DNA of 27,812 nt, from NCBI RefSeq assembly GCF_035285525.1, contig NZ_JAYKGW010000097.1, positions 1 through 27,812 on the forward strand, in the 5' to 3' direction. Both the position numbers and the translations under genes were made by a program. Positions within the stretch are counted from its first letter, which is position 1. Each line of letters begins with the position of its first letter. The notes below the pieces were generated by a model. The model worked only from the letters and a program-made list of their open reading frames with translations. It was not told the origin of the DNA and did not search any database. This stretch comes from Okeania sp. (GTDB lineage Bacteria; Cyanobacteriota; Cyanobacteriia; Cyanobacteriales; Microcoleaceae). Positions 4,661 through 27,106 of this stretch are shown here, piece by piece.

Positions 4661-5020
4661 TTAATTAGAGTTTGCTGAAAAAGTCTTTTTGTAGAGATTA
4701 AGAAGTCCTAGTGACGTTGCATAACAAAAATGTATTTTATGTCGCGCCGCGTTTCGCGGCGCGACATATAAAGCAGAGCTTTGCGTCAGCAAAACGTCCA
4801 TACAGAGTTAAGATAAATAGGAGTTACAGAGGAGTTGGTCGGAATAAAGAGTAAGAGCGATTCCTCTATTATATATAATATAGTTAGCCAAAAATGCTCA
4901 ATTTTGGATTTTTCGGGAACCGTACCTCAGTAGCCGAAAAGTTCGCACTTTTTGATACTTAAAAACCCTAAAATCTTTACCCATAAATCCTTTGATATTT
5001 AATCAGCTAACCCTAATTAA
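4661..5020. mobile_element. MITE-like non-coding element (family A) bounded by terminal inverted repeats
   Basis: Left end TTAATTAGAGTTTGCTGA (4661-4678). The reverse complement of the right end (5003-5020) is TTAATTAGGGTTAGCTGA, matching 16/18. No ORF inside. It carries the GC-rich perfect palindrome at 4741-4765. Confidence 0.55.
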
Positions 5021-5062
5021 AAGCCTAGCATTATATCAGAAAAGTCTTACATTTAAAAGTCT

Positions 5063-6265
5063 ATGAAAAGTTACGATTGGATTATAGTCGGAGGTGGTAT
5101 AACTGGAGCAGCTCTTAGTTATGAACTAGCAAAAAAAGGTTTTGCTGTCCTCCTCTTAGAAAAATATTCCACTTTAAAAGGTGCAACTCGTTATGGTTAT
5201 GGTAATCTACCCTATTGGTCTAGTAATACAGATTTGACCAATAAACTTTTTCAGGAAGGAAAACAACGCCATTATCATCTATCTGAAGAATTAGAAGCAG
5301 ATACCCAGCTTCGAGAATTAAACTTATTATTAACTATCGCCCCAGAAGATGACCCAGAAAAAATAGCTACTAATTTCTCTCAGAATAATACTGTACCTCG
5401 CCTCATAAGTATAGAAGAAGCCTGTGAAATCGAACCCTTACTAAATAAACAGGCGATCGCTGGAGCTTTCACTGTTAGTCAAGGTCATGTTTCACCAGAA
5501 TCCATAACTTTAGCATATTGTCAAGCATTTACTAGATTAGGTGGTCAAATTGAAATAGCAAAAGTAACAGGGTTAGTCAAAACAAACGATAATACAACTC
5601 ATAACTACCCTCAACGCATAACCGGAGTCTACACCAAAGACAAAACTTATCAGGCTGCCAATGTGGTTATCTGTGCAGGTGGAATTTCCCGTCACTTCCT
5701 CAAGTCAGCAGGTATTTCTACCCCTGTTTATTTTACCCATGCTGAAATGTTAGAAACTCCTCCTGTAGAACTACAACTAAATACTGCTGTGGTACCAGCA
5801 GTAGGGAAACGTTTAGATTGCGAAGCTGCTACCTGTACAATTGAGCTTGAGCAAATGTGGGATGAACCTGGCCACGAATTTGTACCCTTCAGCTTAGACA
5901 TTGGCGCAATTCAATTTAGAAATAATAGCATTAGAATAGGTCAAGTCTCCCGCGTACTAACCGATCCTAAGGCTAAAATCGATCCAGTTAAAAGTGAAGC
6001 GACTATGCGAGTAGAGATAGGAAAAATTTTGCCCTCCTTAGAAAATCTACCAGCAACCTGGCATCATTGTTTAGTAGCGTATAGCCCTGACGACTTACCT
6101 CTCATCGGAGCTATTCCTAATATAGAAGGAATACATATTTTTTCTGGATTTACCAGTCCATTTCTATTAGTACCTCCCTTAGCTAAAAGATTTGCTAATT
6201 ATGTAGCTGGAGAAAATGATGAGATTATCCAGCAATTATCCCCCAGTCGTTTTTTAGATAATTAA
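5063..6265 (+). CDS. FAD-dependent oxidoreductase (DAO / glycine-D-amino-acid oxidase-like family)
   Basis: 400-aa ORF with an N-terminal dinucleotide-binding fold, DWIIVGGGITGAALSYELAKKGFAVLLLEK. Length and C-terminal GFTSPFLLVPPLAKRFA fit the DAO family. Confidence 0.8.
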   Translation: MKSYDWIIVGGGITGAALSYELAKKGFAVLLLEKYSTLKGATRYGYGNLPYWSSNTDLTNKLFQEGKQRHYHLSEELEADTQLRELNLLLTIAPEDDPEKIATNFSQNNTVPRLISIEEACEIEPLLNKQAIAGAFTVSQGHVSPESITLAYCQAFTRLGGQIEIAKVTGLVKTNDNTTHNYPQRITGVYTKDKTYQAANVVICAGGISRHFLKSAGISTPVYFTHAEMLETPPVELQLNTAVVPAVGKRLDCEAATCTIELEQMWDEPGHEFVPFSLDIGAIQFRNNSIRIGQVSRVLTDPKAKIDPVKSEATMRVEIGKILPSLENLPATWHHCLVAYSPDDLPLIGAIPNIEGIHIFSGFTSPFLLVPPLAKRFANYVAGENDEIIQQLSPSRFLDN

Positions 6266-6329
6266 TAATGGATAATGGATAATTGATAATGATATTATTT
6301 GATATACCCGTCGCGACCAAGACACCTAT

Positions 6330-6365
6330 AAACCCGGTTTCTTAAAGAAACCGGGTTTATTTTTG
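6330..6365 (+). terminator. Rho-independent terminator of the 5063 gene
   Basis: AAACCCGGTTTC-TTAAA-GAAACCGGGTTT forms a perfect 12-bp stem and is followed by ATTTTTG. Confidence 0.85.
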
Positions 6366-6480
6366 TTGCGAAACCCACTACTCCCTACTCCCTACTCCAG
6401 ATATAGTACATTTGCGTAAGTTACGATCATGTATTTTGTTTGTGATATAATATATTACAAATATAGATTAAAAATCAAAA

Positions 6481-7662
6481 ATGCCATACGAAAGACTCGA
6501 CCTTTCCGCTCCAAACTCCGTATTATCTTGGGCAAATCATTCCTTAGAGCATCAAGAACACAAAATGGCCAAAAACGTAGCCTCTTTGCCATTTGTCTTC
6601 AAACATATTGCTCTCATGCCAGATGTCCATTTAGGTAAAGGTGCATTAGTAGGTTCTGTCATTGCCACCAAAGAAGCAATTATTCCTGCTGCAGTAGGAG
6701 TAGATATTGGTTGTGGAATGTGTGCTATAAAAACGCCTTTTGTTGCCGACCAACTAGAAGGGAAACAAAAGAAAATTAGACAAGATATAGAAGCAAATAT
6801 TCCTGTAGGATTTTCTGACAATAAAGAAATCGAAAAATCTGTCACTAACTGGCAAAATTGGAGAGAATTTAAAGAGTTACATCCAGGGGTAAAAAAACTA
6901 GAAAATAAAGCTCTTAAACAAATGGGTTCTCTTGGTGGAGGCAACCACTTTATTGAACTATGTTTAGACACAGAAAATAATGTTTGGTTAATGTTACATT
7001 CAGGTTCTCGTCATATCGGCAATAAATTAGCTCAATGTCATATTGAAACTGCCAAAGAATTAGCAAAATTGGCAGAAACAAAATTGCCAGATTTAGACTT
7101 AGCTTATTTTGTCACAGGTACACCAGAATTTGCAGCTTACTGGAGAGATTTACAATGGGCACAAAATTATGCTCGGTTTAATAGAAATGTAATGATGGCT
7201 CGTTTTAAACGAATAGTTGAAAAACACTTAGCTGGAGGTAAACCAAGCAAACCATTATTAGAAGTTAATTGTCATCATAATTATGCTGAAAAAGAAGTAC
7301 ATTTTGGCGAAGAAGTTTATGTAACTCGTAAAGGTGCTGTACGAGCGCAGCAAGAAGATTATGGAATTATTCCTGGTTCTATGGGAGCAAAATCTTTTAT
7401 TGTTAAAGGTAAAGGAAACCATGAAAGTTATTGTAGTTGTAGTCATGGAGCCGGGAGATTAATGTCTCGAACTCAAGCTAAAAAACGTTTTTCTGTTGAT
7501 GATTTAGTGAAGCAAACTGAAGGAGTAGAATGTCGGAAAGATAGAGGAGTTATTGATGAAATTCCTAGTGCTTATAAATCTATTGAAGAAGTAATGAATC
7601 AACAAACTGACTTAGTAGAAATTGTGGCAACTATGAAACAAGTTGTTTGTGTAAAAGGATAA
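6481..7662 (+). CDS. rtcB: RNA 3'-phosphate/5'-OH ligase RtcB
   Basis: 393-aa ORF with the conserved RtcB blocks FKHIALMPDVHLGKG, GVDIGCGM, GGGNHFIEL, HSGSRHIGN, NCHHNYA, IIPGSMG and SCSHGAGR. The N-terminal layout parallels E. coli RtcB. Confidence 0.95.
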   Translation: MPYERLDLSAPNSVLSWANHSLEHQEHKMAKNVASLPFVFKHIALMPDVHLGKGALVGSVIATKEAIIPAAVGVDIGCGMCAIKTPFVADQLEGKQKKIRQDIEANIPVGFSDNKEIEKSVTNWQNWREFKELHPGVKKLENKALKQMGSLGGGNHFIELCLDTENNVWLMLHSGSRHIGNKLAQCHIETAKELAKLAETKLPDLDLAYFVTGTPEFAAYWRDLQWAQNYARFNRNVMMARFKRIVEKHLAGGKPSKPLLEVNCHHNYAEKEVHFGEEVYVTRKGAVRAQQEDYGIIPGSMGAKSFIVKGKGNHESYCSCSHGAGRLMSRTQAKKRFSVDDLVKQTEGVECRKDRGVIDEIPSAYKSIEEVMNQQTDLVEIVATMKQVVCVKG

Positions 7663-9030: not shown

Positions 9031-9765
9031 ATGAGGAAATTCTAGCTAAGAATAAGAATATTATTTGACAAGCATAAAGACTTTTTCAAAAAATGAGTTT
9101 AAAAGGGCTAGTATGTTAATAGCTGTTGGCGAAGCATTCCGCAAGAAATGCTGATCCTGATATTGATGGTAAGTGTTATACTAGAGTTGGTTTATAGTAA
9201 TCCTAAATAGGTTGTGACCAATCAAAAAGTAAATAAAAAACTGAGATTTGCTTTTGTTTTTAGTTAAGATTTCTTTAAAAGCGTAAGCATTCAGCTATTA
9301 GGAGTCTGCATCGTCAGTTCAAGCGCCATAAAAATGAATGGCAAACACTCTTTTAACTTCTACTTTTCAACCTGATGTTTGATGTTTTTAAAGTATATTT
9401 ATGGTCGGAAATTATAGATTTAGTTTAAAAGCTGAAAGCTGATTGCTAAATGCTTACCTAAAAGCGGTAAGATTTTTATAAACAAATAAAATAAGATTGC
9501 TATATAACTTATTTTGTAAGCATTTCCTGTGGAATGCTGCGCCAAAAGAAGTCAGCCATCAGCCATCAGATTTATTAACTTTAAAAGAGGAAAAAGCAAT
9601 AAGCCAGATTTCCAAGCGTTATAAATTATGGTTCATTAATGGATAATTATATTATTTGTTAAAAAGCTGATATTAAAAAGCTGAGAGCTGACGGTGAATA
9701 GCTGAATGCTGACCCTAATTTTATTCAAAATTGCTCCTTAGATAAAAATTGCTAAAAATTTAACA

Positions 9766-10164
9766 ATGTCGGAAAAACTTAAGTTAATGGTTGTTGATGA
9801 TGAGCCGAATAATTTAGATCTATTATATCGGACTTTTCGACGTCAATTTAAAGTATTTAGGGCAGAAAATGCTAGATTAGCTATGGAAATTCTGGAAACA
9901 GAGGGTGAAATGGCTGTTATTATTTCTGACCAAAGTATGCCAGATATGACAGGTATTCAATTTCTTAAAAAAACCAAAAATAGCTTTCCTGATACTATTC
10001 GGATTTTATTAAGTGGCTATACAGAAGAAGAAATAGATCCTGAAATTGATGATATACAAGAGGCGGATATTTTTAAATGTGTAACTAAACCTTGTTCTCC
10101 TCAGGAACTTAAGGATATCCTTCAAGAATGTTTGGAAATATATAAATCTAAGAAAGGTTTATAA
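9766..10164 (+). CDS. Single-domain response regulator (CheY-like receiver only)
   Basis: 132 aa. It has the acidic pocket VVDDEP, the phospho-acceptor context IISDQSMPDMTG, then LLSGY and a conserved Lys-Pro (TKPC). There is no output domain. Confidence 0.85.
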   Translation: MSEKLKLMVVDDEPNNLDLLYRTFRRQFKVFRAENARLAMEILETEGEMAVIISDQSMPDMTGIQFLKKTKNSFPDTIRILLSGYTEEEIDPEIDDIQEADIFKCVTKPCSPQELKDILQECLEIYKSKKGL

Positions 10165-14117: not shown

Positions 14118-15452
14118 ATGAAACAACTTAGTCTATTTCCAGAATGGGAATACGAAACTACAAAAAAAACGATCGATAACTATGGTGAAAGACAACACAT
14201 AGAAACTAAATTTTCACATCTAATTCAAGAGGAACTATACTTAGGTAAACTGGTATCTTATGTTGGAAATAAATCTCTACCAATTCTAGGTTTATATAGA
14301 TACAAAGAAGCCTTTGCATTTTCATTAGTTGAAGAATTTATTAAGCGATTTCAATTGACAGACAAAGACTTGATTTTTGAGCCTTTTTGTGGTATGGGAA
14401 CAACTCCATTTACTGCAATGCACGCTAATATTCAAACTGTAGCAATTGATAAATTACCAATAGCAGCTTTTATTGCTAATACTATGCCTTTATTCTGGCT
14501 AGTAGAACCTTCTTCTCTACATCATAATTTTGAACTATTAAAAAATAAATTAAGACAATTTGAACCTGCTGATGTTGCCTCTGATGTAGCAATTATTAAC
14601 AAGGCATTTTCCACAGAAACTTTGACAGAACTTTCTCAGTGGAAAAGTGCAATAGAAACTTTATCTAATCCCATAAAAGATATTTTTTTACTGCTCTTTT
14701 TATCAATTTTGGAACCTTGTAGTTATACAGCTAAAGACGGACAATTTTTAAGAATAAAAAAGGATAAAAAAATTTATTCCCCCACTGAAATACTGCAACA
14801 AAAAATATATCAAGCAGAACAAGATATCTTATCTATGAGAACTTTATGGGGAAATAAAAAACGCCAACTACCTGAAATTAAATTAGCAGATGCTCGTGAC
14901 TTAAGGAATGTTAAATTTTCTCAAAAACCTACTGCAATAATTACTTCTCCTCCTTACCCAAACCGTTATGATTATACTCGTATTTATTCCTTAGAACTTT
15001 GTTTTAATTTTGTGAAAAATTTTGAAGAGTTAAAAGAGTTGCGGTTTAGTATTTTACGCTCCCATATAGAATTAAAAGTTCAAGACAATGATGCTCCAAA
15101 TCATCCAGTTATTGCTGAAGTAGTAGATATTTTGCGACAACAAGGCAAAGTATTGAATAATCCTCGAATCCCTGATATGTTAGTAGGGTATTTTATTGAT
15201 ATGAATCAGGTTATTAAGGAGTGGTCTAAGGTATTAGTTTCTGGTGCTAAAGTTGCTATGGTAGTCGATAATGTTAGGTTTGCAGGCGAGTTAATACCTG
15301 TAGATTTAATCTTATCTGAAATGGCAGAAAAAGTAGGGTTTAAAGTTGAAAAAATTATTGTTGCCCGCTACAAAGGTAATAGTTCACAACAAATGGGTAA
15401 ATATGGTAGAATTCCTGTTCGTGAAAGTATTGTTGTCTGGCAAAAAAATTGA
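14118..15452 (+). CDS. Type II DNA methyltransferase (amino-methyltransferase, motif I before motif IV)
   Basis: 444 aa. The AdoMet motif FEPFCGMGTT lies near residue 88 and the catalytic motif ITSPPYPNRYDY near residue 277. S-P-P-Y is classically seen in N4-cytosine enzymes, though N6-adenine cannot be excluded. A nuclease gene follows 13 nt downstream. Confidence 0.85.
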   Translation: MKQLSLFPEWEYETTKKTIDNYGERQHIETKFSHLIQEELYLGKLVSYVGNKSLPILGLYRYKEAFAFSLVEEFIKRFQLTDKDLIFEPFCGMGTTPFTAMHANIQTVAIDKLPIAAFIANTMPLFWLVEPSSLHHNFELLKNKLRQFEPADVASDVAIINKAFSTETLTELSQWKSAIETLSNPIKDIFLLLFLSILEPCSYTAKDGQFLRIKKDKKIYSPTEILQQKIYQAEQDILSMRTLWGNKKRQLPEIKLADARDLRNVKFSQKPTAIITSPPYPNRYDYTRIYSLELCFNFVKNFEELKELRFSILRSHIELKVQDNDAPNHPVIAEVVDILRQQGKVLNNPRIPDMLVGYFIDMNQVIKEWSKVLVSGAKVAMVVDNVRFAGELIPVDLILSEMAEKVGFKVEKIIVARYKGNSSQQMGKYGRIPVRESIVVWQKN

Positions 15453-15464
15453 AGGTTTTAAATT

Positions 15465-16400
15465 GTGGTAAATGAGGATAAACGACAAGCTTGGGTCTTA
15501 GATCAACTTGCTAAAAGTGAACTTTTTCATCAAAAGTTACATGAATGGGAAATGTTAGAAATTGCAGATAAAATAGAAGAGGCAAAAGGAGAAACATGGG
15601 AATGGAATTTACAGAATTTAGGCATTTCTTAAACTGCATGGAATAAAGTGATTCATCGAGGAATCAAACCTGTAATTGTTTTTGCTCATCCCCAAGTTTT
15701 AATTAATATTCTATGTTCTGTTAGTTATTATAGAATGTTAGCAATGGTCTCTCAAAAATCTATGAGTCAAGTTGGATTATCAATTATTCGTTATGAGCAA
15801 GGTAATAGTTTAACTGATGAATTAATCGCTCGAAAAATTTCTCAACATTTGAATAAAATTATTAGTTATCTTATTAAAGCTGATGAGAAAATTGACTACC
15901 GTGAATTTCATATTTGGCGAGGTATGGCAGCGGGCGCTCAAGCTCAAGGTTCGTGGCAAAATATCAAGGGAAATAAGATTGAAATTATCATTAGAAGATT
16001 ATTAGAAAGGAGGTTAAATGAACAAAAATTGGTAACTGATGAAAATCTTGATAGTTCGACAATAAATTTGCTTGATGGCAGGGTCGTTATATTTGCAGAT
16101 GAACCAGATATAGGAATTTATAAAGATGAAAAAATTATAGCTGCTGTTGAAATAAAAGGAGGTATTGATAGAGCTGGTATTTTAGAAAGAGTAGGTGCTG
16201 CAATTAAAAGTTTAAGTCGAGCTAAAAAAATTAATTCTGAATCCATAACAGTTTTGATTTTACAAGGTGTTTCTATTACTAAACAAGCAATAGATGACCT
16301 GAATAACCATCAACTTATTGTTAATCATTGGTTCACTGTTGAAGAAGTATTGGAAAATAATCAAAAGCAAAAACAATTATTTGGAATACTAGATATTTAA
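15465..16400 (+). pseudogene. Type II restriction endonuclease (PD-ExK) gene interrupted by an in-frame TAA at 15630-15632
   Basis: My translation from GTG 15465 gives VVNEDKRQAWVLDQLAKSELFHQKLHEWEMLEIADKIEEAKGETWEWNLQNLGIS-stop-TAWNKVIHRGIKPVIVF..., in the same frame as track ORF 15648-16400. The nuclease motif is ADEPD...AAVEIKGG. GAAGG lies 9 nt upstream of the GTG. Confidence 0.7.
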
Positions 16401-16549: not shown

Positions 16550-17193
16550 TTAACTATTAGCATTAGGAAAATTTTTTCTTAAGATAGGCATAGCTACACT
16601 TGAGCTTTCTTGTCTAGCAAGTTGCAAATATTCTACCACAATTTCTGCCACATTTAGAAGGGGAAAATATCGACTATTAGAAACAAGAATATAAGTGTTT
16701 GTTTTCAAGGTATAAATCATAAGTTTATTTTTTTTATATATATCCAAACTTCAGGAATTTTATAGGGAAGATAATCATTAACATCAGTGTAACTGGTAAC
16801 ATCAATTTCTAAGGCTAAATCAGGTGGAGTTTCCCTACTCCAGTCAATACGATCTTTACCCAATGCAACTTGCCAATTATGAATATAAAAACTATAGTCA
16901 GGTTCGATGCCACCAACTTCCGCTAAGTCTATTGTCATAGGAGTAAATGCTTCATATTTTTGTCCTAAGTAATATAATAAAATAGTAATTATATTAGCTA
17001 TGATGTGAGCTTCTCGTCCATTTTTAGGAAGAGGTGACATTAATAAAATTTCTCCCGATCGATATTTGATTCGTGGGTTAGCTTGCTCATCCCTTTGTTT
17101 AATTAGTTTTTTATAGCCTGTCCATGTACCAAGCAAATGAACAAATGTGCCTGGAGATAACTTAATTTTTTCTGGTGTAACAACAGCAATCAT
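16550..17193 (-). pseudogene. Uma2-family (DUF820) endonuclease gene with a frameshift in an A8 homopolymer
   Basis: Track ORFs 16717-17193 and 16550-16747 overlap. The first ends ...YKIPEVWIYIKKINL-stop. The second continues KKNKLMIYTLKTNTYILVSNSRYFPLL..., as expected for the family. Adding one A to the run (T8 on plus, 16727-16734) joins them. Confidence 0.75.
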
Positions 17194-18899: not shown

Positions 18900-20243
18900 A
18901 TGGCTAACCAAAAGTCACTTGATAAACTACAGAAACTAATTCAAGATAGTACTAACAAAGCAATCATAAATAATGTCGAGCAAACTAGCAAATCAAGTAA
19001 CAATTTTACTGGTGTAAATCTTGAGAATGCTGACCTAAGTCTGAGCGATTTAGATGATATTAATCTTAGCGAAACTATTCTTAAAGGTGCTTATTTGCTG
19101 TGTGCTAATTTGAAAAGAACTAACTTTAGTAATAGCGATCTGAGCTATGCTAATCTCAGAGGAGCAATAATGTGGTTTGCTAACCTTAGCAAAGTGAATT
19201 TTCAAGGTGCAGACCTCAGAGGTGCTAGTTTTAGAGAAGCTAATTTAGACAGTGCTAATTTAGAATATGCTAACCTTTGGCGTACTGAGATTATTAACTC
19301 AAAATTAATAGAAACTAATCTTACAAATGCTAATTTAACTAATGCTAATTTGAGAAATAGTAATCTCACCAATGCCAATTTTAGTTATGCTGAATTGAAG
19401 AATGCTAACCTTAGCGAAGCTAATCTTACAGGTACTAATTTGAGTTATGGAAATTTGAGAAATGTTATTCTTAAAGATGCTAATCTTAAAAATGCTAATC
19501 TATCTAATATTAACTTAGTTGAAAGTAAATTAAACCGAGCTAATTGTGAAGGTGCTAATTTTTATTGTGCTAATCTGTATTGTACTAATTTTAGTCACGC
19601 CAATCTTCATAACGCCAAGTTGAGAGATGCTAATTTAGATTATGTTAATTTCAGAGGAGTAAAAATTAATGATGGAACAGAATTAGATAATAAGTGGCGT
19701 CTAGTTTGGGATATTGTTAATCATGGTGCTTATGGGAAAAATTTAAGTGGAACTAATCTGGAAAATGCCGATCTTAAAGGTGCGAATATAGGTAGTGTTA
19801 ACTTAACTAATGCTAACCTCAGATATGCTAATCTCAGATATGCTAATCTTAGTAATGCTAATTTAACTAATACTCAATTAACTAATACTAATTTAACAGA
19901 TATTAATTTTATTAAAGCCAATTTATATAATGCCAATATGCAAGGAGCTAATCTGAGCCATAGTTTATTATTTAATTCTATTATGACAGGTGCTTTATTA
20001 AATCAAGCTAAACTGATAAAAACTGAATTATGTGATGCGGAATTATCGAATGCTAAATTAATGATGGCAAATCTGATGAATGCTAACTTGAAAAATGCTA
20101 GATTATTGGGAGCTGATTTAAGAGAAACTAACCTTGAAGGTGCAAAATTAGGTGGTGCTGTATTTGGTAATAATCTGGGAATTTCTGAAGAAATGAAGCA
20201 GGAATTAATTAAACGTGGGGCTGTTTTTGAGGATGAAGATTAA
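18900..20243 (+). CDS. Large pentapeptide-repeat protein
   Basis: 447 aa, almost entirely A(N/D)L(x)x pentapeptides in two blocks separated by GVKINDGTELDNKWRLVWDIVNHGAYGKN. The C-terminal tail GISEEMKQELIKRGAVFEDED is shared with the 17664 product. Confidence 0.9.
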   Translation: MANQKSLDKLQKLIQDSTNKAIINNVEQTSKSSNNFTGVNLENADLSLSDLDDINLSETILKGAYLLCANLKRTNFSNSDLSYANLRGAIMWFANLSKVNFQGADLRGASFREANLDSANLEYANLWRTEIINSKLIETNLTNANLTNANLRNSNLTNANFSYAELKNANLSEANLTGTNLSYGNLRNVILKDANLKNANLSNINLVESKLNRANCEGANFYCANLYCTNFSHANLHNAKLRDANLDYVNFRGVKINDGTELDNKWRLVWDIVNHGAYGKNLSGTNLENADLKGANIGSVNLTNANLRYANLRYANLSNANLTNTQLTNTNLTDINFIKANLYNANMQGANLSHSLLFNSIMTGALLNQAKLIKTELCDAELSNAKLMMANLMNANLKNARLLGADLRETNLEGAKLGGAVFGNNLGISEEMKQELIKRGAVFEDED

Positions 20244-20297
20244 GAAAGAAGAAAGAAGGAAGAAGGAAGAAGGAAGAAGGAAGAAGGAAGAAGGAGG
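20243..20297. repeat. 55-nt all-purine tract containing (GAAGGAA)x5 plus one imperfect heptamer
   Basis: Read directly. The perfect heptamers run from 20255 to 20289. The tract starts at the last base of the stop codon of the 18900 gene. Its complement type (CTTCCTT-like) forms the tails at 7957-8004 and 8256-8318. Confidence 0.9.
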
Positions 20298-20505: not shown

Positions 20506-20782
20506 TAGGTTCAATTAAAAAGGTGAAAAAAGTTAGCAAGGAAAGGCTAACTAGAACAGAAAAATTAAGAGACAATTCTTCCAACTAAATTCCTTTATAA
20601 CTCTTATTCCTCCGAGCTTCTCTTCCTCGGAGGGGCTAGGAGTGGGTTGACTCCCTAAGTCCCCCTCCACCGGAGGGGTTAGGGTTGGGTTGACTCTCTA
20701 CTTCCACCATCAGACTTTTTCAAATATGAAACTCAAAATCTTGTTTGGTAGCCATTACAGCTATAATATATTATTTTTAAAA

Positions 20783-20803
20783 TGAGAATAATTATCATTC
20801 TCA
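20783..20803. promoter_or_regulatory. Fur-family (Fur/Zur-type) operator candidate
   Basis: Palindrome TGAGAAT-AATTATC-ATTCTCA. The 19-mer GAGAATAATTATCATTCTC (20784-20802) matches the classical Fur box GATAATGATAATCATTATC at 15/19 positions by my manual alignment. It lies 16 nt downstream of a perfect TATAAT (20762-20767) and 22 nt upstream of ATG 20825. Confidence 0.55.
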
Positions 20804-20824
20804 TAATTATTGTTCTTTAATTCC

Positions 20825-22018
20825 ATGTCCTTACCAGTACAAACCAAAATGGCCATCGTAGGTGCTGGACCCCATGCCCTAACCTTGGTAACTCATCTGT
20901 TGCAAAAACGGGAAAAGTATCGCCATAAAATAATAGTATTTGATCCCAGCGGCACTTGGATGAGTCAGTGGCAACAGCAGTTCGCAGCCCAAGACATACC
21001 CCACTTGCGATCGCCAGTCGTTCACCACCCAGACCCAGACCCCTATTCTCTGCGTCGGTTTGCGGAACATCGCCTAGATGAACTATTCCCTCCCTACGAC
21101 TTACCTGGAACAAAAGTATTTCAAGAATTTTCCCAAGACGTAGTTAGTCGCTGGCAATTAGAAGACAAAGTATACAAATCATCAGTGACAAATATTGCTC
21201 CCATAACCTATAGAGGGAAACCTAACTTTCGAGTTGAACTAGATGATGGCAACTCAACCATAGCTCATCAAGTAGTCGTAGCTAATGGTGGGGGAAAATC
21301 CCAACTTCCAGAATGGGCGAAAAAAATTTCCACCCCCTATCCAAACGAAAGCCTTTGTCACTCCAATGAAGTAGACTTGCAAGGTTTGCGACTCAAAGGG
21401 GAAAAAGTGTTGGTTATCGGTGGGGGATTAACTAGCGGCCATTTAGCATTGGGGGCTTTAAAACGAGGCGCAAACGTAGCCTTGATGCTAAGACGTAAGC
21501 TCAAAGAGAAATTATTTGATGCCGACGCTGGTTGGTTAGGTCCAAAATATTTGAAAGTTTTTAGCGCCGAAACTGACTGGCAAAAACGATGGCAGTTAAT
21601 TCAAGAAGCACGAGATGGGGGTTCCGTGACACCAGAAGTGATGACTCAGTTGCGCCGTTACCAACACCAAAATGAGTTATCTATTTTTGAGGAATGTCAG
21701 GTAGTGGGTGCTGAGTTTGTCGGCGATCGCTGGCAAGTAAAATGCGATGATGGAATGACATGGGAATGCGATCGTATCTGGTTAGCAACAGGTACAAAAC
21801 TTGATATTATAGAACAACCTATCTTAAAAGAAGTCTTGCATACTCACCCAGTGAAAATAATCAATGGGTTGCCAGTATTAGATGAATATTTGTGCTGGTC
21901 TGGTTGCGAACTATTTATTATGGGTGGGTTAGCTGCTTTGCAAGTAGGACCTGTTGCCAGAAACCTATCGGGAGCAAGGATGGCAAGTACCCGTATCGTA
22001 TCAGCATTAAAAAGTTAA
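20825..22018 (+). CDS. FAD/NAD(P)-binding oxidoreductase with two Rossmann motifs (flavin monooxygenase / N-hydroxylase-like or pyridine-nucleotide-disulfide-like)
   Basis: MAIVGAGPHALTLV (first GxGxxA/G) and VLVIGGGLTSGHLALGALKRGANV (second). I prefer ATG 20825 (MSLPVQTKMAIVGAG) to the TTG at 20810. ATG 20849 is also possible. Confidence 0.75.
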   Translation: MSLPVQTKMAIVGAGPHALTLVTHLLQKREKYRHKIIVFDPSGTWMSQWQQQFAAQDIPHLRSPVVHHPDPDPYSLRRFAEHRLDELFPPYDLPGTKVFQEFSQDVVSRWQLEDKVYKSSVTNIAPITYRGKPNFRVELDDGNSTIAHQVVVANGGGKSQLPEWAKKISTPYPNESLCHSNEVDLQGLRLKGEKVLVIGGGLTSGHLALGALKRGANVALMLRRKLKEKLFDADAGWLGPKYLKVFSAETDWQKRWQLIQEARDGGSVTPEVMTQLRRYQHQNELSIFEECQVVGAEFVGDRWQVKCDDGMTWECDRIWLATGTKLDIIEQPILKEVLHTHPVKIINGLPVLDEYLCWSGCELFIMGGLAALQVGPVARNLSGARMASTRIVSALKS

Positions 22019-22052
22019 TAGAATTTACGCAAATACGCTATATGTAGCGTTT

Positions 22053-22076
22053 AAAACTATTGTACAATAGTTTTTT
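22053..22076 (+). terminator. Perfect AT-rich palindrome followed by a T-run, either a terminator or an operator
   Basis: AAAACTATTG-TA-CAATAGTTTT plus TT. It is preceded by a second hairpin, ACGCTA-TATG-TAGCGT (22035-22050). Both lie in the 109-bp spacer between the oxidoreductase and the NTPase gene. Confidence 0.4.
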
Positions 22077-22127
22077 AACTCTATAGGCAGTACTTTGCCT
22101 AAGTCCTGGTTAAGCTATGGAAGAAAA

Positions 22128-22886
22128 ATGTCAAAACCTATAATCACTGTAGTAGCTGGTCCACCGGGAGTCGGCAAAACAAATTTTATTCGGGAACAAA
22201 TCCCCAAAGATACTCCTGCTGTTTATTTCAGCCCCGGTACTGGCAATGTTCCCATTGACCACACTTATCTGGCTACGGATTTTCCCAATCTCAAAATTAT
22301 TACTGATGCTCAACAGTCAGAACTCATAGAATATCTTGGTAATGGTACAGTTACTTTTATCGAATTAGGATTTTATTTAGAGTTAGATGCAATGTCATCA
22401 CTGCTGGATAAGATTCCTAGCACTCGTATTGCCATTATCCCACCGGGAACAGAAAATAGTGAATGGCATAAGTGGGCAGACCAAACTGTAGAAGGATGTG
22501 CTATTGAGAGTAATATTAATAATTGTCAATTCTGGCGATCGCCCACTAGAGGTCAAGTTATCGATCCGGCAAGTTTAGATGTTTTTTGGTATGATGAATT
22601 AATCCCTGGAGCTTATGGTGAAATTGTGCGTGCTAAAGCAATTTTTGATATTGCTGACGGACGTGCTTTTTCCTTTAATTTTGTCTTAGGAAAAGACACT
22701 GAATATCAAGAATTAAATTTACCAAGATGGCTAGAAGGTAGACCAGAACGTTTTAGTGGAATTGAAGTTTTTGGTAATAACTTAAATCAGAAAGCTTTAG
22801 CAGAAACTTTACAAGATTGTTGTTTACCTGATATAGCAATTTTAGCTTATCAAGAACAAGTAAAAGAAACAATGAATAATGAATAA
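22128..22886 (+). CDS. P-loop NTPase resembling G3E/CobW (COG0523-like) but lacking the CxCC motif
   Basis: Walker A VVAGPPGVGKTNFI. The Walker-B-like block is TFIELGFYLELD. The C-terminal part, GEIVRAKAIFDIADGRAFSFNFVLG, resembles the CobW C-terminal domain. No CxCC lies between the Walker motifs. I place the start at ATG 22128 (MSKPIITVVAG). Confidence 0.55.
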   Translation: MSKPIITVVAGPPGVGKTNFIREQIPKDTPAVYFSPGTGNVPIDHTYLATDFPNLKIITDAQQSELIEYLGNGTVTFIELGFYLELDAMSSLLDKIPSTRIAIIPPGTENSEWHKWADQTVEGCAIESNINNCQFWRSPTRGQVIDPASLDVFWYDELIPGAYGEIVRAKAIFDIADGRAFSFNFVLGKDTEYQELNLPRWLEGRPERFSGIEVFGNNLNQKALAETLQDCCLPDIAILAYQEQVKETMNNE

Positions 22887-23053
22887 TTAATAATTAATAA
22901 TTAATAATTAATTATTATGGTTGAAAGCCTCGCATTTTAAGGAAAAAAAAGAAATAATATTTCCTTAGATGTCGAATAACTTTGCTGAAATTACTGAAGC
23001 ATTAAAGTTTTGAGCAATAAAATCTTACTTTTGACTTTTGATTTTTGACTTTT

Positions 23054-23377
23054 TTAATTAAATAGTTAGCCGTAGGTTGGGTTGAGGAACGAAACCCAAC
23101 AAGAGTAAGCTTTTTTAGGTTTCACTATCGTTCAACCCAAACTACATTTTTAGATGAAAACTTTGACTATTTAATTCCATTAATTAAATAGTTAGCCGTA
23201 GGTTGGGTTGAGGAACGAAACCCAACAAGAGTAAGCTTTTTTTAGGTTTCACTATCGTTCAACCCCACCTACATTTTTAGATGAAAATTTTGACTATTTA
23301 ATTCCATTAATTAAATAGTTAGCCGTAGGTTGGGTTGAGGAACGAAACCCAACAAGAGTAAGCTTTTTTTAGGTTTC
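23054..23377. repeat. Tandem repeat, 126-127 bp unit, about 2.6 copies, each unit internally palindromic
   Basis: TTAATTAAATAGTTAGCCGTAGGTTGGGTTGAGGAACGAAACCCAACAAGAGTAAGCTTTTTTAGGTTTCACTATCGTTCAACCC.A.CTACATTTTTAGATGAAAA.TTTGACTATTTAATTCCA starts at 23054, 23180 and 23307. Each unit has the inner hairpin GTTGGGTT/AACCCAAC and outer arms GTAGGTTGGGTTGA paired with TCAACCCAAACTAC. Confidence 0.9.
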
Positions 23378-23410
23378 TGAACAATTAATAATTAAATAGG
23401 AATAATTAAT

Positions 23411-24226
23411 ATGAAAATCGCAGTTATGTCTTGCATTCATGGCAATTATGAAGCTTTAAATTCTGTATTAATAGATATAGAAAAACAGAAAGCAGAGAAA
23501 ATTTTCTGTCTGGGAGATTTAGTCGGTTATGGTCCCCATCCCAACGCGGTTGTCGAGCAAATTCGCAGTTTAGATATTCCCACAGTTTTAGGTTGTTGGG
23601 ATGAGGATATTGTGGAAGGATTAAATTCTTGTGAATGTAGTTATCCTTCTTTATTAGCAGAGAAACGTGGCAAGTTAGCTCACGAATGGACTGATAAAGA
23701 AATTAATCCAGAAACACGAGAATATTTAGGGTCTTTATCTCATACTTTGAAAGAAGAAAATATGTGTTTTGTTCATGGTAGTCCTCATAGTAACCATGAA
23801 TATTTATTACCAGATTTAGATGGTTTTTTAGCAGTTGAAAGAGTGTTAAGTAGTGGTGCTGATGTCTTGTTTTGCGGTCATACTCATGTACCTTATGTTC
23901 GGACTCTTGATGCTAATCAATTATTAGTTAAAGTTAATAGTTTGGGGAGGGAAAATTTAGAGTCAAAGAGTTGTATTGCTCCTCTGAAAAAAATTGTTAA
24001 TGTTGGTTCTGTAGGAGAACCTCGTCATGGTAGACCAAATGCTACTTATGTTATTTATGACAATGAAACTGAAGAAGTAAATATTCGAGAGATTCCCTAT
24101 GATTATCAACTTACTTGTGAAGCTATAGTTAATAAGGGGTTGCCAGAAATTTTTGCTTGGCGTTTGGCAAGGGGTTTAGAATATGCGGAAAAAGCTGACG
24201 ATCCTACTCATATTTGTGAGAGATAA
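23411..24226 (+). CDS. Metallophosphoesterase (calcineurin-like, Metallophos_2-type)
   Basis: 271 aa. The motifs, in order, are MSCIHGN, LGDLVGYGP, GCWDED, FVHGSPH, GHTHVPY and VGSVGEP. Confidence 0.8.
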   Translation: MKIAVMSCIHGNYEALNSVLIDIEKQKAEKIFCLGDLVGYGPHPNAVVEQIRSLDIPTVLGCWDEDIVEGLNSCECSYPSLLAEKRGKLAHEWTDKEINPETREYLGSLSHTLKEENMCFVHGSPHSNHEYLLPDLDGFLAVERVLSSGADVLFCGHTHVPYVRTLDANQLLVKVNSLGRENLESKSCIAPLKKIVNVGSVGEPRHGRPNATYVIYDNETEEVNIREIPYDYQLTCEAIVNKGLPEIFAWRLARGLEYAEKADDPTHICER

Positions 24227-24505
24227 TTGATAATTAATAATTAATAATGGATAATTGATAATTAAATAATTCTGGTTTAAGTAGGTAGGTGAAAAAAAAT
24301 TACAAGTATGTCATTGCGACTGGAACGGAGTGTAAGGAAGCAATCTCTGAGGGTTTTAAATACTTTAATATTTCCTTACATCGTGAAGTTTATTTGTGCC
24401 TACCTACTTAATTTAATGCCTCCCATTCTAAAGGGAAAAGGAAATAATATTTTCTTATATTTAATCAATAATGGTTTTATAGAAATTTAAGTTTTTCTGA
24501 GGTAA

Positions 24506-24749
24506 AATCCCCCCGTCCCCCTTTGAAAGCTATCCCTTATAAGGAACTCCTGAAACCCTGATGATGGTGGGATGGGCAGATGAGGGGAGAAAAGCCTCTA
24601 GTTAAATACTTAACTCTCCCGGAATACCCATTGAATGGTAAATACATGACTCGTCTTTTTTGTCAAGTTTTATGTTAAGAAAGATGTTTATAAAGGGGGG
24701 AAGCTGGAGCCTTCAAAGTCCCCCTTTCAAAGGGGGATTTAGGGGGATT
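24506..24749. mobile_element. MITE-like element (family B) with G/C-run terminal inverted repeats
   Basis: Left end AATCCCCCCGTCCCCCTTTGAAAG (24506-24529). The reverse complement of the right end (24724-24749) is AATCCCCCTAAATCCCCCTTTGAAAG. A solo right-end copy, TTTCAAAGGGGTATTTAGGGGGATTAT, lies at about 12966-12992. Confidence 0.55.
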
Positions 24750-24892
24750 ATAAATCTAGCTCAGAACTGTGGAAATTGCTATAACCATAGGTAATTATCT
24801 ATTATCAATTACAGCAAATTTCATCTTGGTAAAGCATATCTATGACAGCCTAGAAGGCTGTGTTACAAACCCTAAAAAAAGCAAAAAATTAT

Positions 24893-25621
24893 ATGAATTA
24901 TTGGGCAATCTTAACTGGAATTGAAGGAAATATCAAAGCTTATGAAGCCGTACTTGCTGATATTAAAAAACAAAGATATTTTGTGGAATCTTTATATATT
25001 TTAGGAGATTTAGTCGGGCTAAATATAGATTGTAAAAAATTAGTAGAGCGAGTACGTTATCCCAAAAAAAACGAACTTATACCCCAAGTTTGTACGGGAT
25101 GGTGGGAAGAACAATCTTTGATTTTACATGGATTAACTTCGATGAATGAACCGACAGAATTAATCAAAGAATATGGCATGAATACTGTGAAAATATTATG
25201 GGATAATGTAGATAGAGAAACAGTAGAATGGTTGAGGAATTTGCCCTTTGGTTTTTCTGAACTTGACTGTTTATTAATTCACGGTAGCACTATCGGAGTA
25301 AGCGATAAATTGACCCCCGATACTCCCCCGATACAAATGTTAGATAGATTAATGCGTTTTGGCGTTAATAATTTATTTTGTGGTCGCTCTGGTTTAGCTT
25401 TTGAATATCAGTTGGAAAATGGTTCAGTTAGTAGTGGGGTGACAACATTGGGAGCTGAAGTAGGTGCTATTGAGACAACATCATCTACTCAAGCTTTAAC
25501 GCCACGTCGGGTAATAGGGGTAGGTAATGTGGGAAGTTTGCCGGGAAATGCTACTTATACTCTTTATAATCCTAATACTGATGCAGTTTCTTTTAGAACT
25601 TTGACATACTCCCCGCGCTAA
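24893..25621 (+). CDS. Degenerate metallophosphoesterase paralogue (predicted catalytically inactive)
   Basis: It is colinear with the 23411 product, but the ligand motifs are altered: TGIEGN for SCIHGN, ILGDLVG retained, TGWWEEQ for GCWDED, LIHGST for FVHGSPH, GRSGLAF for GHTHVPY and VGNVGS for VGSVGEP. I place the start at ATG 24893 (MNYWAILTG), by analogy with MKIAVMS. Confidence 0.65.
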   Translation: MNYWAILTGIEGNIKAYEAVLADIKKQRYFVESLYILGDLVGLNIDCKKLVERVRYPKKNELIPQVCTGWWEEQSLILHGLTSMNEPTELIKEYGMNTVKILWDNVDRETVEWLRNLPFGFSELDCLLIHGSTIGVSDKLTPDTPPIQMLDRLMRFGVNNLFCGRSGLAFEYQLENGSVSSGVTTLGAEVGAIETTSSTQALTPRRVIGVGNVGSLPGNATYTLYNPNTDAVSFRTLTYSPR

Positions 25622-25780: not shown

Positions 25781-27106
25781 ATGCACACAACAGCAATTGA
25801 TTTTATACAGCGTTTTACAGGAAAGAATTTAAGCAATCGAAATATACTCGAAGAGTTTTCAGATCGAGTCAGATTCTCTAGTTGGTTAAAAAAACAATAT
25901 CCTAATACGTCACCAGAAATATACAATGCCATGCTGTTGATGGCACGACCATATTTTGAGTATAAAGATACGCCCGTATACGTTGTATCATTGGTCGATA
26001 CACTTTTTATTACGGGACGTAGTGACTCTAGCATCAGCTTTATCCGACCTAATACTTTAGGCACTCAAAAACAAATGATACTTGATGTACCACATGCCGG
26101 AACCTTACCACCTTCTTGTGTTGATGGACTATTATCTGATGACGTAATTGCTGATAAATCCGTATGCTCTAGCAATCCTTACACAATTTGGAATCAAGCA
26201 GATGTTGGGGTTTTGGAGGTATCTGGAAGTATTTGGCAAAATAATCAAAATTTTGTCTGTGGTTCGGCAGTATTGACAAATTTAATTATCAGCAATGGCA
26301 ATCGCTCCCCAGCAAAAGAAGGTAGAACTAATCAGGTCTACAATACACACACTTATCGTGGGACTCCTCTATACAAAGATATTTCTCAGCCTACGGTCGA
26401 AACAAAACTAGGGTTAAAAAAGAATCATGATTTGAGTATTGCTGTAGCTGGAGCATGTCGTGCTGCTGCGTATATGACAAATCCGAATTATCCTATTATC
26501 TGTTTAGAACCACATAGTTATTCAGCATTTTCCCATGAAATACTCGATGCGTTATTTTCACCAAAACTAGATGGTATGAACTTAACTAAATTTGCACCGC
26601 ACAATGGTGGTACAGATACCAAAGCACTACTAGATTATCTGCGCAATACCTATGACTTGAAATCGTATCAAGAGTTAGTTAGACCATTGGTGTCAGTCTT
26701 AGATGTCTCAAATCCTGACGAACCAGATAAATACAGTACTGTTAATCGCTCGCAAATGGAAGCTTTTGTCGATCCCTTTATAAGGATGATACGGGATGCT
26801 TCTCACAGACTACCTATTAATATTGATAATTGGGAAAAATCCCGTCCTGATGTTTATGGTGCTACCAATACCATACTGAAAAGGTTAGAAGAAGCGATCA
26901 AAAAAGCCAATTATTATCTTGACATTAATGATGACAACCTAATATCAAAAACTATAAATACGGTGACAATTGAATATAATAGGGGACTGGTAACATCCAA
27001 CGAAACCTCTAACATCCACACCAGTGAACAAGATTTTTACGAGCGTTGTCAATTGCTCGGTGCGGCATTTGTAGCTGGCATCAATAATATGCAAAATCTG
27101 TTTTAA
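25781..27106 (+). CDS. Hypothetical protein, 441 aa, no family recognised
   Basis: A long uninterrupted ORF in an AT-rich, stop-rich background. Both antisense track ORFs look like shadows of it. There is no signal peptide, transmembrane segment or motif that I can name. Confidence 0.7.
   Translation: MHTTAIDFIQRFTGKNLSNRNILEEFSDRVRFSSWLKKQYPNTSPEIYNAMLLMARPYFEYKDTPVYVVSLVDTLFITGRSDSSISFIRPNTLGTQKQMILDVPHAGTLPPSCVDGLLSDDVIADKSVCSSNPYTIWNQADVGVLEVSGSIWQNNQNFVCGSAVLTNLIISNGNRSPAKEGRTNQVYNTHTYRGTPLYKDISQPTVETKLGLKKNHDLSIAVAGACRAAAYMTNPNYPIICLEPHSYSAFSHEILDALFSPKLDGMNLTKFAPHNGGTDTKALLDYLRNTYDLKSYQELVRPLVSVLDVSNPDEPDKYSTVNRSQMEAFVDPFIRMIRDASHRLPINIDNWEKSRPDVYGATNTILKRLEEAIKKANYYLDINDDNLISKTINTVTIEYNRGLVTSNETSNIHTSEQDFYERCQLLGAAFVAGINNMQNLF

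Follow-up and report, generated by a model that had tools for sequence, protein, structure and literature searches.

A Zur-type box and a conserved NTPase, metallophosphoesterase, and pseudoenzyme unit in a probable zinc-limitation gene cluster of Okeania sp.

In a stretch of 27,812 nucleotides (nt) from Okeania sp. (NCBI RefSeq assembly GCF_035285525.1, contig NZ_JAYKGW010000097.1, positions 1 to 27,812 of the forward strand; this whole stretch is referred to as the window), four open reading frames (ORFs), designated A, B, C, and D in the following, all lie on the + strand downstream of a Zur-type box according to the ORF listing. We consider it reasonably probable that they form a zinc-limitation gene cluster, repressed by Zur, with a B-C-D unit in which B is an assembly factor for C and D; the zinc responsiveness of the cluster is well supported. 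The conserved functional unit is B-C-D, which is evolutionarily obligate, and A belongs to the same regulon, is often adjacent, and is separable. The new element is a cyanobacteria-wide B-C-D operon with a fixed Zur box, in which a thiolate metallophosphoesterase is combined with an obligatory pseudoenzyme and a CxCC-less derivative of the COG0523 family, and which we did not find described in the accessible literature. The box and the four genes are located as follows (aa, amino acids; the basis of each gene assignment is given in brackets).

20783-20797, no strand assigned: Zur box, 7-1-7 palindrome TGAGAAT-A-ATTATCA
20825-22018, + strand: gene A, 397-aa FAD/NAD(P)H flavoprotein, N-hydroxylating-monooxygenase-like (Pfam, homologues, Foldseek, PCC 7120 context)
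22128-22886, + strand: gene B, 252-aa COG0523/G3E-derived P-loop NTPase with a CobW_C-like domain (alignment, structure model, Foldseek, profile against the PDB)
23411-24226, + strand: gene C, 271-aa metallophosphoesterase with a thiolate-substituted dinuclear site (Pfam, alignment to 3rqz, family invariants)
24893-25621, + strand: gene D, 242-aa pseudo-metallophosphoesterase, paralogue of C (BLASTP, 74 orthologues, substitution rates)

Gene starts were set at the ATGs that fit the lengths of the orthologues (A 20825, B 22128, D 24893). With these starts, the spacers A-B, B-C, and C-D measure 109, 524, and 666 nt, which are the values that a first-pass annotation of this DNA had given for its four same-strand genes. 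The nearest relatives of A, B, C, and D are found in Okeania, Dapis, and Trichodesmium (83-97% identity), which assigns the window to this clade of marine filamentous cyanobacteria, and the ratio of nonsynonymous to synonymous substitution rates (dN/dS) is 0.10-0.27 for all four genes.

The box lies in the promoter region of A (TGAGAATAATTATCA at 20783-20797) and has one mismatch to TGATAATNATTATCA, the cyanobacterial 7-1-7 consensus being TGATAAT-N-ATTATCA; a further register of the 9-1-9 type (GAGAATAAT-T-ATCATTCTC) overlaps with it at 20784-20802. Similar sequences are found in the table of cyanobacterial Zur sites given by Haas et al. 2009, TGAgAAT variants among them. The one other match to the 15-mer in the window, at 16769, has two mismatches and lies inside an ORF. 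A position weight matrix (PWM) was trained solely on the boxes upstream of His-rich COG0523, HemB, and ZnuC genes in related loci and is therefore independent of A and B. It delivered 140 sites in 1.35 Mb and none in shuffled sequence; 46 of these sites are located upstream of B and 23 upstream of A, and 23 of 27 A loci contain a site at the PWM threshold. The box of the window scores 19.1 bits and is the sole site above that threshold in 27.8 kb. Because of a register offset, the strict 19-mer PWM undercounted the boxes of Nostocaceae, and the published 15-mer (at most two mismatches) was used in its place. It is present in 76 of 86 B-operon promoters, with a background of 0.14 sites per kb, and in 21 of 28 A promoters, which shows that other genomes retain the site before their orthologues. 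This box also stands in front of znuC, the His-rich COG0523 gene, hemB2, and folE in the same loci. The first-pass annotation had placed a metal-responsive cluster behind a Fur/Zur-like box; the match to published sites, the promoter counts, the neighbouring genes, and the orthologue data given below support this cluster and narrow the box down to the Zur type.

In lineages with a tight operon, the centre of the box has a fixed position at -16 from the B ATG (interquartile range -16 to -15). Hardly any space thus remains for a 5' leader, which suggests that the B mRNA of these lineages is leaderless or has a very short leader. An example is the box at about 9979-9998 with the B start at 10001 (L048-L083, many Microcoleus loci). 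In the window, the box is found about 28 nt upstream of the A ATG, where it abuts candidate -10 hexamers, and 11 sister genomes retain it at a distance of about 26 nt ahead of A. Two candidate promoters came from a consensus scan alone:

20754-20783, + strand: candidate sigma-70-type promoter, ATTACA-18-TAAAAT, adjoining the Zur box
20745-20772, + strand: alternative candidate promoter, TTGGTA-16-TATATT

About 80-150 nt upstream of the box, at 20628-20708, a G-rich unit of 38 nt (CGGAGGGGCTAGGAGTGGGTTGACTCC...) occurs in two direct copies (82% identical), which are partly self-complementary with the preceding sequence.

The regulation of orthologues has been reported in two well-studied strains. 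For the Anabaena operon all4725-all4721 (hemB2, flavoprotein, thrS2, COG0523, folE), repression by Zur at two promoters and induction upon zinc limitation have been described (Napolitano et al. 2012/2013, as summarised in PMC6103462 and PMC4787780), and the values cited there from electrophoretic mobility shift assays give a nanomolar dissociation constant (Kd) for the binding of Zur to Pall4725 and Pall4723. The A orthologue of PCC 7120 was located in the order HemB-A-ThrRS-COG0523-FolE, A being the second gene and thus all4724 by position, and Zur sites were found before hemB and before thrS, that is, at the two expected promoters. Like this regulon, the window has a 7-1-7 box, and HemB, COG0523, FolE, HisI, and ZnuC flank B-C-D in many genomes; unlike all4725-all4721, the flavoprotein of the window heads its own unit and is followed by B-C-D instead of thrS2. 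A review lists alr1197 as a COG0523-type Zur target of Anabaena, and it is conceivable that alr1197-1199 represents B-C-D.

In Synechococcus PCC 7002, the pAQ7 genes hemB-II, folE-II, G0131 ("similar to GTPases"), and G0132 ("FAD-dependent oxidoreductase") were upregulated in a zur (A2498) deletion strain and upon treatment with N,N,N',N'-tetrakis(2-pyridylmethyl)ethylenediamine (TPEN), and G0129 ("phosphoesterase") and G0130 showed no rise under these conditions (Ludwig et al. 2015, PMC4628125). G0132 is the A homologue and G0131 a truncated B. The gene set and order correspond to those of Picosynechococcus PCC 7117, where A is divergent from B, which is followed by C, D, folE, and hemB. Unlike the cluster of the window, the operon of PCC 7002 is broken: a deletion-replacement (L095 on pAQ7, 5001-6772, as compared with L085, 6124-8568) has cut B at residue 147, removed C, left residues 136-246 of D (a 111-aa remnant), and inserted an unrelated 235-aa ORF. 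The sister strains PCC 7117 and PCC 73109 have intact B and C, and D is intact in PCC 7117 as well. Since C is deleted and D is a remnant, the PCC 7002 data say nothing on C or D, and the failure of G0129 to be induced was rejected as evidence against co-regulation because G0129 and G0130 are the remnant and the insertion. Zur control of A and of a truncated B has therefore already been published, the genes being left uncharacterised, and to this extent the module is not wholly undescribed, contrary to the first-pass annotation. The B-C-D operon, its box, and the proteins C and D, on the other hand, were not found described: no paper characterising B, C, or D was found in the accessible literature, nothing in the literature searched linked a metallophosphoesterase to Zur or zinc limitation, none of these families is mentioned in the Synechocystis Zur paper, and a Nodularia genome paper merely lists an apparent adjacent pair among phosphatases.

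The distribution of the genes was followed in one scan of species-representative genomes, 242 of which have a B relative; the best 80, together with loci from other look-ups, were analysed. Among the matches listed, B relatives are cyanobacterial throughout. B, C, and D occur in this order wherever a locus offers sufficient sequence (86 related loci). Where gene calls exist, in Microcoleus and Calothrix, the reading frames of B and C share 4 nt. Estimated B-C gaps have medians of 5-17 nt in all lineages other than the clade of the window, where the median is 384 nt. In Trichodesmium erythraeum, about 18 nt separate A from B and about 11 nt separate B from C (tblastn estimate). The observation that the cluster is not a tight operon thus holds for the window and is a peculiarity of the Okeania/Trichodesmium clade, the B-C gap elsewhere being a few nt. 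All-against-all clustering of the neighbouring ORFs gave the following recurrent neighbours:

HemB paralogue: 35 loci, 7 lineage groups
His-rich COG0523 protein with GCICC: 32 loci, 5 lineage groups
FolE: 27 loci, 4 lineage groups
A: 27 loci, 4 lineage groups
Crp-family regulator: 21 loci, 3 lineage groups
HisI: 15 loci, 2 lineage groups
ZnuC-like ATPase: 8 loci, 4 lineage groups

Among these, HemB, the His-rich COG0523 protein, FolE, HisI, and ZnuC are classic members of Zur regulons. On plasmid A of T. variabilis, for instance, B-C-D closes a hemB / thrS-DUF1636-COG0523-methyltransferase-hisI cluster. The Crp-family regulator is located directly 3' of D in Microcoleus/Tychonema (L001:10763-11380 and 20 other loci, which also include Coleofasciculus and one Chroococcales metagenome-assembled genome) and may provide a second regulatory input. 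A GAF-domain protein (164-190 aa) is encoded just upstream of B in Calothrix on the same strand (L003:7355-7927) and in Microcoleus on the opposite strand (L001:5922-6416), and is absent from the window. Gene-neighbourhood conservation, the check that the first-pass annotation had put forward, is therefore observed outside this genome for B-C-D, and orthologues of A and B are regulated by zinc or Zur; none of the outcomes it had named as speaking against the cluster was encountered.

The position of A is more variable. It lies within 10 kb of B in 28 of 87 tabulated loci, in four different arrangements, and its location varies between lineages as follows:

A directly upstream of B, same strand: the clade of the window, Brasilonema, and Scytonema; adjacent by locus tag in Chroococcidiopsis
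A divergent from B with a shared site: Symploca, Caldora, and Picosynechococcus
A about 5 kb downstream with its own box: some Microcoleus and Tychonema
A absent within 10 kb: most Nostocales

This bears on an alternative according to which the genes share a regulon without sharing a pathway: Zur genes cluster in islands, A would have a function unrelated to B-C-D, and B-C-D in turn may be unrelated to the other genes of the island. We regard the evidence for and against this possibility as evenly balanced. A occurs near B about as often as HemB, COG0523, or FolE do, it lies between hemB2 and thrS2 in Anabaena, and the destruction of B-C-D in PCC 7002 has left it intact and inducible. On the other side, A is immediately adjacent to B in five lineages (Okeania/Trichodesmium, Brasilonema/Scytonema, Symploca/Caldora, Picosynechococcus, and Chroococcidiopsis), and this adjacency, on the same strand or divergent with a shared site, is more intimate than that of the other regulon genes. 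We accept this explanation for the relation of A to B-C-D; the B-C-D unit itself is unaffected by it. Of the four-gene module initially proposed, B-C-D is thus conserved and A is not part of it, being adjacent in about a third of the loci and belonging to a different Zur operon in Anabaena.

The three proteins of the unit can be described as follows. In 32 aligned B sequences, the Walker A residues G11, G14, G16, K17, and T18 and the G3E Walker-B glutamate E79 (IELG, ExxG) are invariant. CxCC is absent from all of them, no NKxD guanine-specificity motif is found in the alignment, where the corresponding strand is followed by PPxxxxSEWHxWA, and the sole conserved cysteine belongs to an invariant D-C(-C) near the C-terminus. 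B has a CobW_C-like domain and a two-domain fold. The B of the window scores 21.5 bits against CobW_C, just under the cutoff of 22, and PF07683 is precomputed for many of its orthologues; Pfam cobW (PF02492) gave no match to the B of the window. The AlphaFold2 model of B has a predicted local distance difference test (pLDDT) score of 90.5, and its best match in the PDB by Foldseek is Zn-bound YjiA, the E. coli COG0523 protein (E 9e-9, probability 1.0), with a template modelling (TM) score of just 0.34. This structural match spans both domains of B. The B profile, when run against the PDB, finds the N-terminus of YjiA alone (E 0.01), and its alignment to YjiA ends before the position of the CxCC motif. 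The initial description of B as a CxCC-less, CobW-like P-loop NTPase of the G3E type is therefore accurate, given its Walker A, the IELG motif, the YjiA match, and the lack of CxCC and NKxD. Like the COG0523/G3E metallochaperones (YjiA, YeiR, ZigA, ZagA/YciC, ZNG1-METAP1, Nha3-nitrile hydratase, and, distantly, UreG and HypB), B combines a P-loop with CobW_C, keeps Walker A and the G3E glutamate, is under Zur control, and is genetically coupled to a metalloenzyme. Unlike them, it lacks CxCC, NKxD, and a His-rich stretch and has only 252 aa as compared with about 320-350, with a shortened NTPase domain. An RNA-repair kinase-phosphatase pair of the Pnkp type was considered for B and C and rejected because the fold of B is COG0523-like and not kinase-like. 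Exact-sequence look-ups with the B of the window and with its closest match returned nothing.

C is matched by Metallophos_2 (7.7e-20, 71.9 bits, cutoff 27) and Metallophos (42.1 bits, cutoff 21.5) in Pfam, and its closest solved relative is 3rqz (E 1.8e-25 over the full length). Where 3rqz has SDVHAN and GNHD, C has SCIHGN and GCWDED, so that in each metal site an oxygen ligand is replaced by a thiolate (D8C, N62C) and the catalytic histidine by tryptophan (W63). The resulting ligand set (C8, H10, D36, C62, H122, H157, H159) is invariant, together with W63, in 28 family members. Motifs I and III, which read C8-I-H10 and G61-C62-W63-D64, thus depart from the canonical D-x-H and G-N-H-[DE] in all 28, and the GD of motif II, the histidine of motif IV, and the G-H-x-H of motif V are retained, with D36, H122, H157, and H159 invariant. 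Further invariant residues in these members are C33, C74, C76, C155, H267, and C269, of which C74 and C76 are part of an insertion and H267 and C269 of a tail, neither being present in 3rqz. C is 71-79% identical between cyanobacterial orders and 94-97% within the clade of the window. Like the YfcE/ApaH-like branch (3rqz; SapH, 3qfm; the Pyrococcus proteins 1nnw and 2gju), C has the fold and the motif order, with GD, H(IV), and GHxH intact. It differs from that branch in having CxH for DxH, GCWD for GNHD, the CxC insertion, and the C-terminal HxC tail, as well as in always being accompanied by a ligand-less paralogous partner. The Cys-substituted metallophosphoesterase first noticed in this gene is thus confirmed by the 3rqz alignment and by the invariants of the 28 members. 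An exhaustive search among 1.84 billion representatives yielded 134 full-length relatives of C, which were typed by their ligands:

D/N/H, canonical: 99 of 134
D/N/Y plus CxC insertion: 23 of 134
full C/C/W: 7 of 134 (rare)

Four distant relatives of the Cys type (36-45% identical to C) were located. One is encoded on a contig too short for neighbours to be read, the second, on an unrelated metagenomic contig, directly follows a 548-aa FeoB-like GTPase-permease and precedes a Crp-like regulator (L088:6917-7591), and the third is flanked by a FUR-family gene on one side and by a 550-aa FeoB-like gene on the other. The surroundings of this third relative also contain a TonB-dependent receptor and another FUR gene, so that it is located between two FUR-family regulators (Pfam). 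The FeoB-like genes are located at:

L088:4346-5992, FeoB-like gene
L089:6869-8521, FeoB-like gene (together with L089:5352-5804 and 9047-9670)

D, which has no Pfam match, is paralogous to C (BLASTP: 30% identity, E 2e-27). Its ligand positions read G, E, D, W, H, R, and G, so that the equivalents of D36 and H122 alone are kept. The substitutions at the five other positions (G, E, W, R, G) are found in 72-74 of 74 orthologues, and dN/dS is 0.16-0.23, indicating purifying selection. D had been called a dead paralogue at first sight; it is indeed a ligand-less paralogue of C, but the invariant substitutions and the dN/dS values identify it as a conserved pseudoenzyme and not a dead gene.

From these elements, the following mode of action is proposed. 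When zinc is sufficient, Zur-Zn would sit on the box at 20783-20797, beside the likely -10 element of the A promoter, and block transcription. When zinc is scarce, the promoter would open and A would be transcribed, and in the clade of the window, read-through from the A promoter would extend into B, C, and D. We infer this read-through for the present genome from the lack of a + strand terminator and from the compact A-B-C arrangement in sister species, although a hairpin follows A and the spacers are long. B may then be a dedicated factor that assembles C or inserts its metal in a nucleotide-dependent manner; B is tightly coupled to C and derives from COG0523, and C has an altered metal site, which together suggest a maturase-client pair. 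C would work as a heterodimer with its ligand-less paralogue D as scaffold partner. Its thiolate ligation would shift the metal preference from Mn/Mg to Fe(II) or tighten the binding of Zn, and the C/D complex would provide a phosphoesterase or metal-handling activity that is maintained under zinc scarcity.

Several points weigh against this proposal. B lacks CxCC, the motif that defines metal binding in COG0523, as well as NKxD, which makes its role as a chaperone an analogy and not a demonstration. Extra thiolates would raise, not lower, the affinity for zinc, which is awkward for the idea of a zinc-free paralogue, and C may not be a hydrolase at all because its catalytic histidine is replaced by tryptophan. 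Furthermore, none of B, C, and D is preceded by a separate Zur box in the window, and the genes are separated by long, repeat-rich spacers with hairpins, so that zinc control of C and D in this genome would depend on unproven read-through or on unseen promoters. B-C-D was not found in PCC 7120, the 90% clusters of T. variabilis B, C, and D holding no PCC 7120 sequence, and PCC 7002 lives without B-C-D, which is consequently dispensable in some strains. Lastly, the distant Cys-type relative P0426 has no metal-related neighbours.

The replaced histidine also leads to the question of whether C and D form an enzyme in the first place. They might instead constitute a Cys/His-rich buffer for zinc or another metal, a sensor, or a hand-off platform that cooperates with GTPases (B here and FeoB-like proteins elsewhere). 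The invariant exchange of the motif III histidine for tryptophan, the seven invariant cysteines and several extra histidines in C, the pairing of the C family with a P-loop NTPase in two unrelated architectures, and the pseudoenzyme nature of D all fit such a role. We nevertheless hold it to be unlikely, as five of the seven canonical ligands as well as GD and GHTH are strictly kept in C, whose identity of 71-79% is what a constrained active site would typically show. YfcE-type enzymes, moreover, are active with a residue other than histidine at the catalytic-His position.

Returning to B as an assembly factor for C and D, a more far-reaching version of this reading is conceivable, which we put forward very tentatively and think doubtful: C may represent an unrecognised class of calcineurin-fold metalloproteins with a dinuclear thiolate or more complex centre (C8, C62, C74, C76, H267, C269) that is unable to assemble unaided and needs a dedicated NTPase (in cyanobacteria B, a COG0523 derivative without its former CxCC site, and a FeoB-like GTPase-permease elsewhere) as well as the scaffold D. 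If true, B-C-D would be a new maturase-client system comparable to UreG-urease and HypB-hydrogenase, and cyanobacteria at large, among them the nitrogen-fixing marine genus Trichodesmium, would activate it in response to zinc starvation. Open-ocean waters contain little zinc, and major nitrogen fixers of the sea belong to the Okeania/Dapis/Trichodesmium clade; the ways in which they adapt their metalloproteome to zinc stress are understood only in part. C is among the most conserved proteins of the zinc-starvation response (71-79% between orders) and has an unusual cysteine-substituted metal site. B, in turn, offers a natural test case for a COG0523-type protein that has lost its own metal-binding motif, and it thereby bears on how G3E chaperones recognise and serve their clients. 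Genes that are annotated just as "GTP-binding protein", "metallophosphoesterase", "metallophosphatase", or "FAD/NAD(P)-binding protein" are thus provided with a regulon and with testable partners.

The spacers of the window deserve attention because they could indicate that the cluster is decaying in this genome, the repeats having uncoupled the genes and C and D no longer being zinc-regulated or functional. The hairpins, the tandem array, and the MITE-like element of the initial description (MITE, miniature inverted-repeat transposable element) were all found again with Tandem Repeats Finder (TRF), by repeat families, and by RNA folding:

22054-22075, + strand: hairpin in the A-B spacer, AT-rich and perfect, AAAACTATTG-TA-CAATAGTTTT, followed by a T run (sequence and RNA fold)
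23054-23377, no strand assigned: tandem array of a 127-bp unit, 2.6 copies, filling the B-C spacer (TRF score 620, repeat family D2)
24273-24415, no strand assigned: MITE-like long inverted repeat in the C-D spacer with a predicted hairpin of 140 nt (inverted repeat I5, RNA fold)

Judging from its sequence, the A-B hairpin is a possible weak attenuator; it was left unflagged by the terminator scan, which demands at least three GC pairs and predicted no terminator-like site on the + strand between 20250 and 25800. Decay would account for spacers of 524 and 666 nt, filled with tandem arrays and a MITE-like element, in place of the few nt seen in other lineages, and for the missing Zur boxes before B, C, and D. 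It is quite improbable all the same: purifying selection acts on the four ORFs (dN/dS 0.10-0.27), none of which is disrupted, C remains 94-97% identical in the clade, no + strand terminator is predicted, and the expanded spacers are common to about a dozen sister genomes and hence old and tolerated. The 127-bp array is absent in T. erythraeum, and sister genomes have different insertions at the same spacer places. Heptamer arrays (AATTAAT, GATAATT) start at the stop codons of B and C (22871-22917 and 24222-24263).

A matches NAD_binding_9, Pyr_redox_3, and Lys_Orn_oxgnase in Pfam, the last of these (PF13434) with 36.4 bits (cutoff 21.3) over residues 116-328. GxGxxG occurs twice, so that two dinucleotide-binding motifs, the family profile, and the fold are in agreement. 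By sequence, the likeness of A to solved flavin-containing monooxygenases is only remote. The AlphaFold2 model (pLDDT 79) retrieves SidA, PvdA, DesB, lysine 6-monooxygenase, and KtzI at the top of the Foldseek list, and it superimposes on N-hydroxylating monooxygenases with TM scores of 0.70-0.77 (E 1e-21 to 1e-17). The model thus matches an N-hydroxylating-monooxygenase-like enzyme, for which N-hydroxylation of an amine is a putative activity. These results agree with the two-Rossmann, flavin N-hydroxylase-like protein that had been recognised from the sequence. Across cyanobacteria, A is about 60% identical. Like SidA, PvdA, IucD, DesB, and KtzI, it has two Rossmann motifs, an "ATG" motif, and a Lys_Orn_oxgnase match above the cutoff. 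In contrast to them, it is just 14-19% identical, is shorter (397 aa), and has three strongly conserved segments of low model confidence (residues 49-66, 86-94, and 228-240). The GC content of gene A is 0.445 and its GC content at third codon positions (GC3) 0.374, as compared with a GC3 of 0.18-0.25 in B, C, D, and the other genes of the window, which points to a different history or codon-usage pressure for A.

Unlike SidA-type N-hydroxylases, A has no siderophore-assembly genes beside it and is controlled by Zur, not Fur: non-ribosomal peptide synthetases (NRPS), NRPS-independent siderophore (NIS) synthetases, and acyltransferases are absent from the recurrent neighbours in the 87 loci. A siderophore or zincophore pathway, which the fold of A might suggest, was therefore rejected, and the argument that such N-hydroxylases are classical Fur targets does not carry over to this gene. 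Iron control of the cluster through a generic Fur-family box, as known for siderophore N-hydroxylases, would draw on the agreement of the box with 16 of the 19 positions in the classical Fur consensus, the fold of A, the FeoB-like genes beside distant Cys-type phosphoesterases, and the induction of iron-stress genes by TPEN in PCC 7002 (PMC4628125), but is very improbable in view of the identical box type before znuC, His-rich COG0523, hemB2, and folE, the nanomolar binding of Zur to the Anabaena promoters, the specific derepression of the PCC 7002 homologues in the zur (A2498) deletion, and the lack of recurrent NRPS, NIS synthetase, or acyltransferase genes near A.

The window as a whole is rich in AT and contains pentapeptide-repeat genes as well as long spacers filled with repeats. 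The genes upstream of the cluster are unrelated to metals and encode TPR-CHAT, a DAO oxidoreductase, RtcB, ABC-F, a restriction-modification pair, Uma2, and pentapeptide proteins. The pair is probably a type II system, in which an ORF resembling N6/N4 DNA methylases (14118-15452) is followed by an XcyI-like restriction endonuclease (15648-16400). An array of AAGGAAG (7.7 copies) lies 3' of a pentapeptide gene at 20242-20295. Rfam and tRNA scans of the window were empty, which leaves no riboswitch or RNA explanation. Shortly 3' of D, a 441-aa ORF (25781-27106, + strand) has no Pfam or NCBIfam match. Copies that are 94-95% identical occur at unrelated positions in one Okeania and one Symploca genome (L008:5459-6781 and L077:19386-20708), and the other proteins of that Symploca genome are just 50-77% identical to those of the window. 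The ORF thus has the appearance of a gene that was recently mobile or spread by horizontal transfer, and was for this reason left out of the module.

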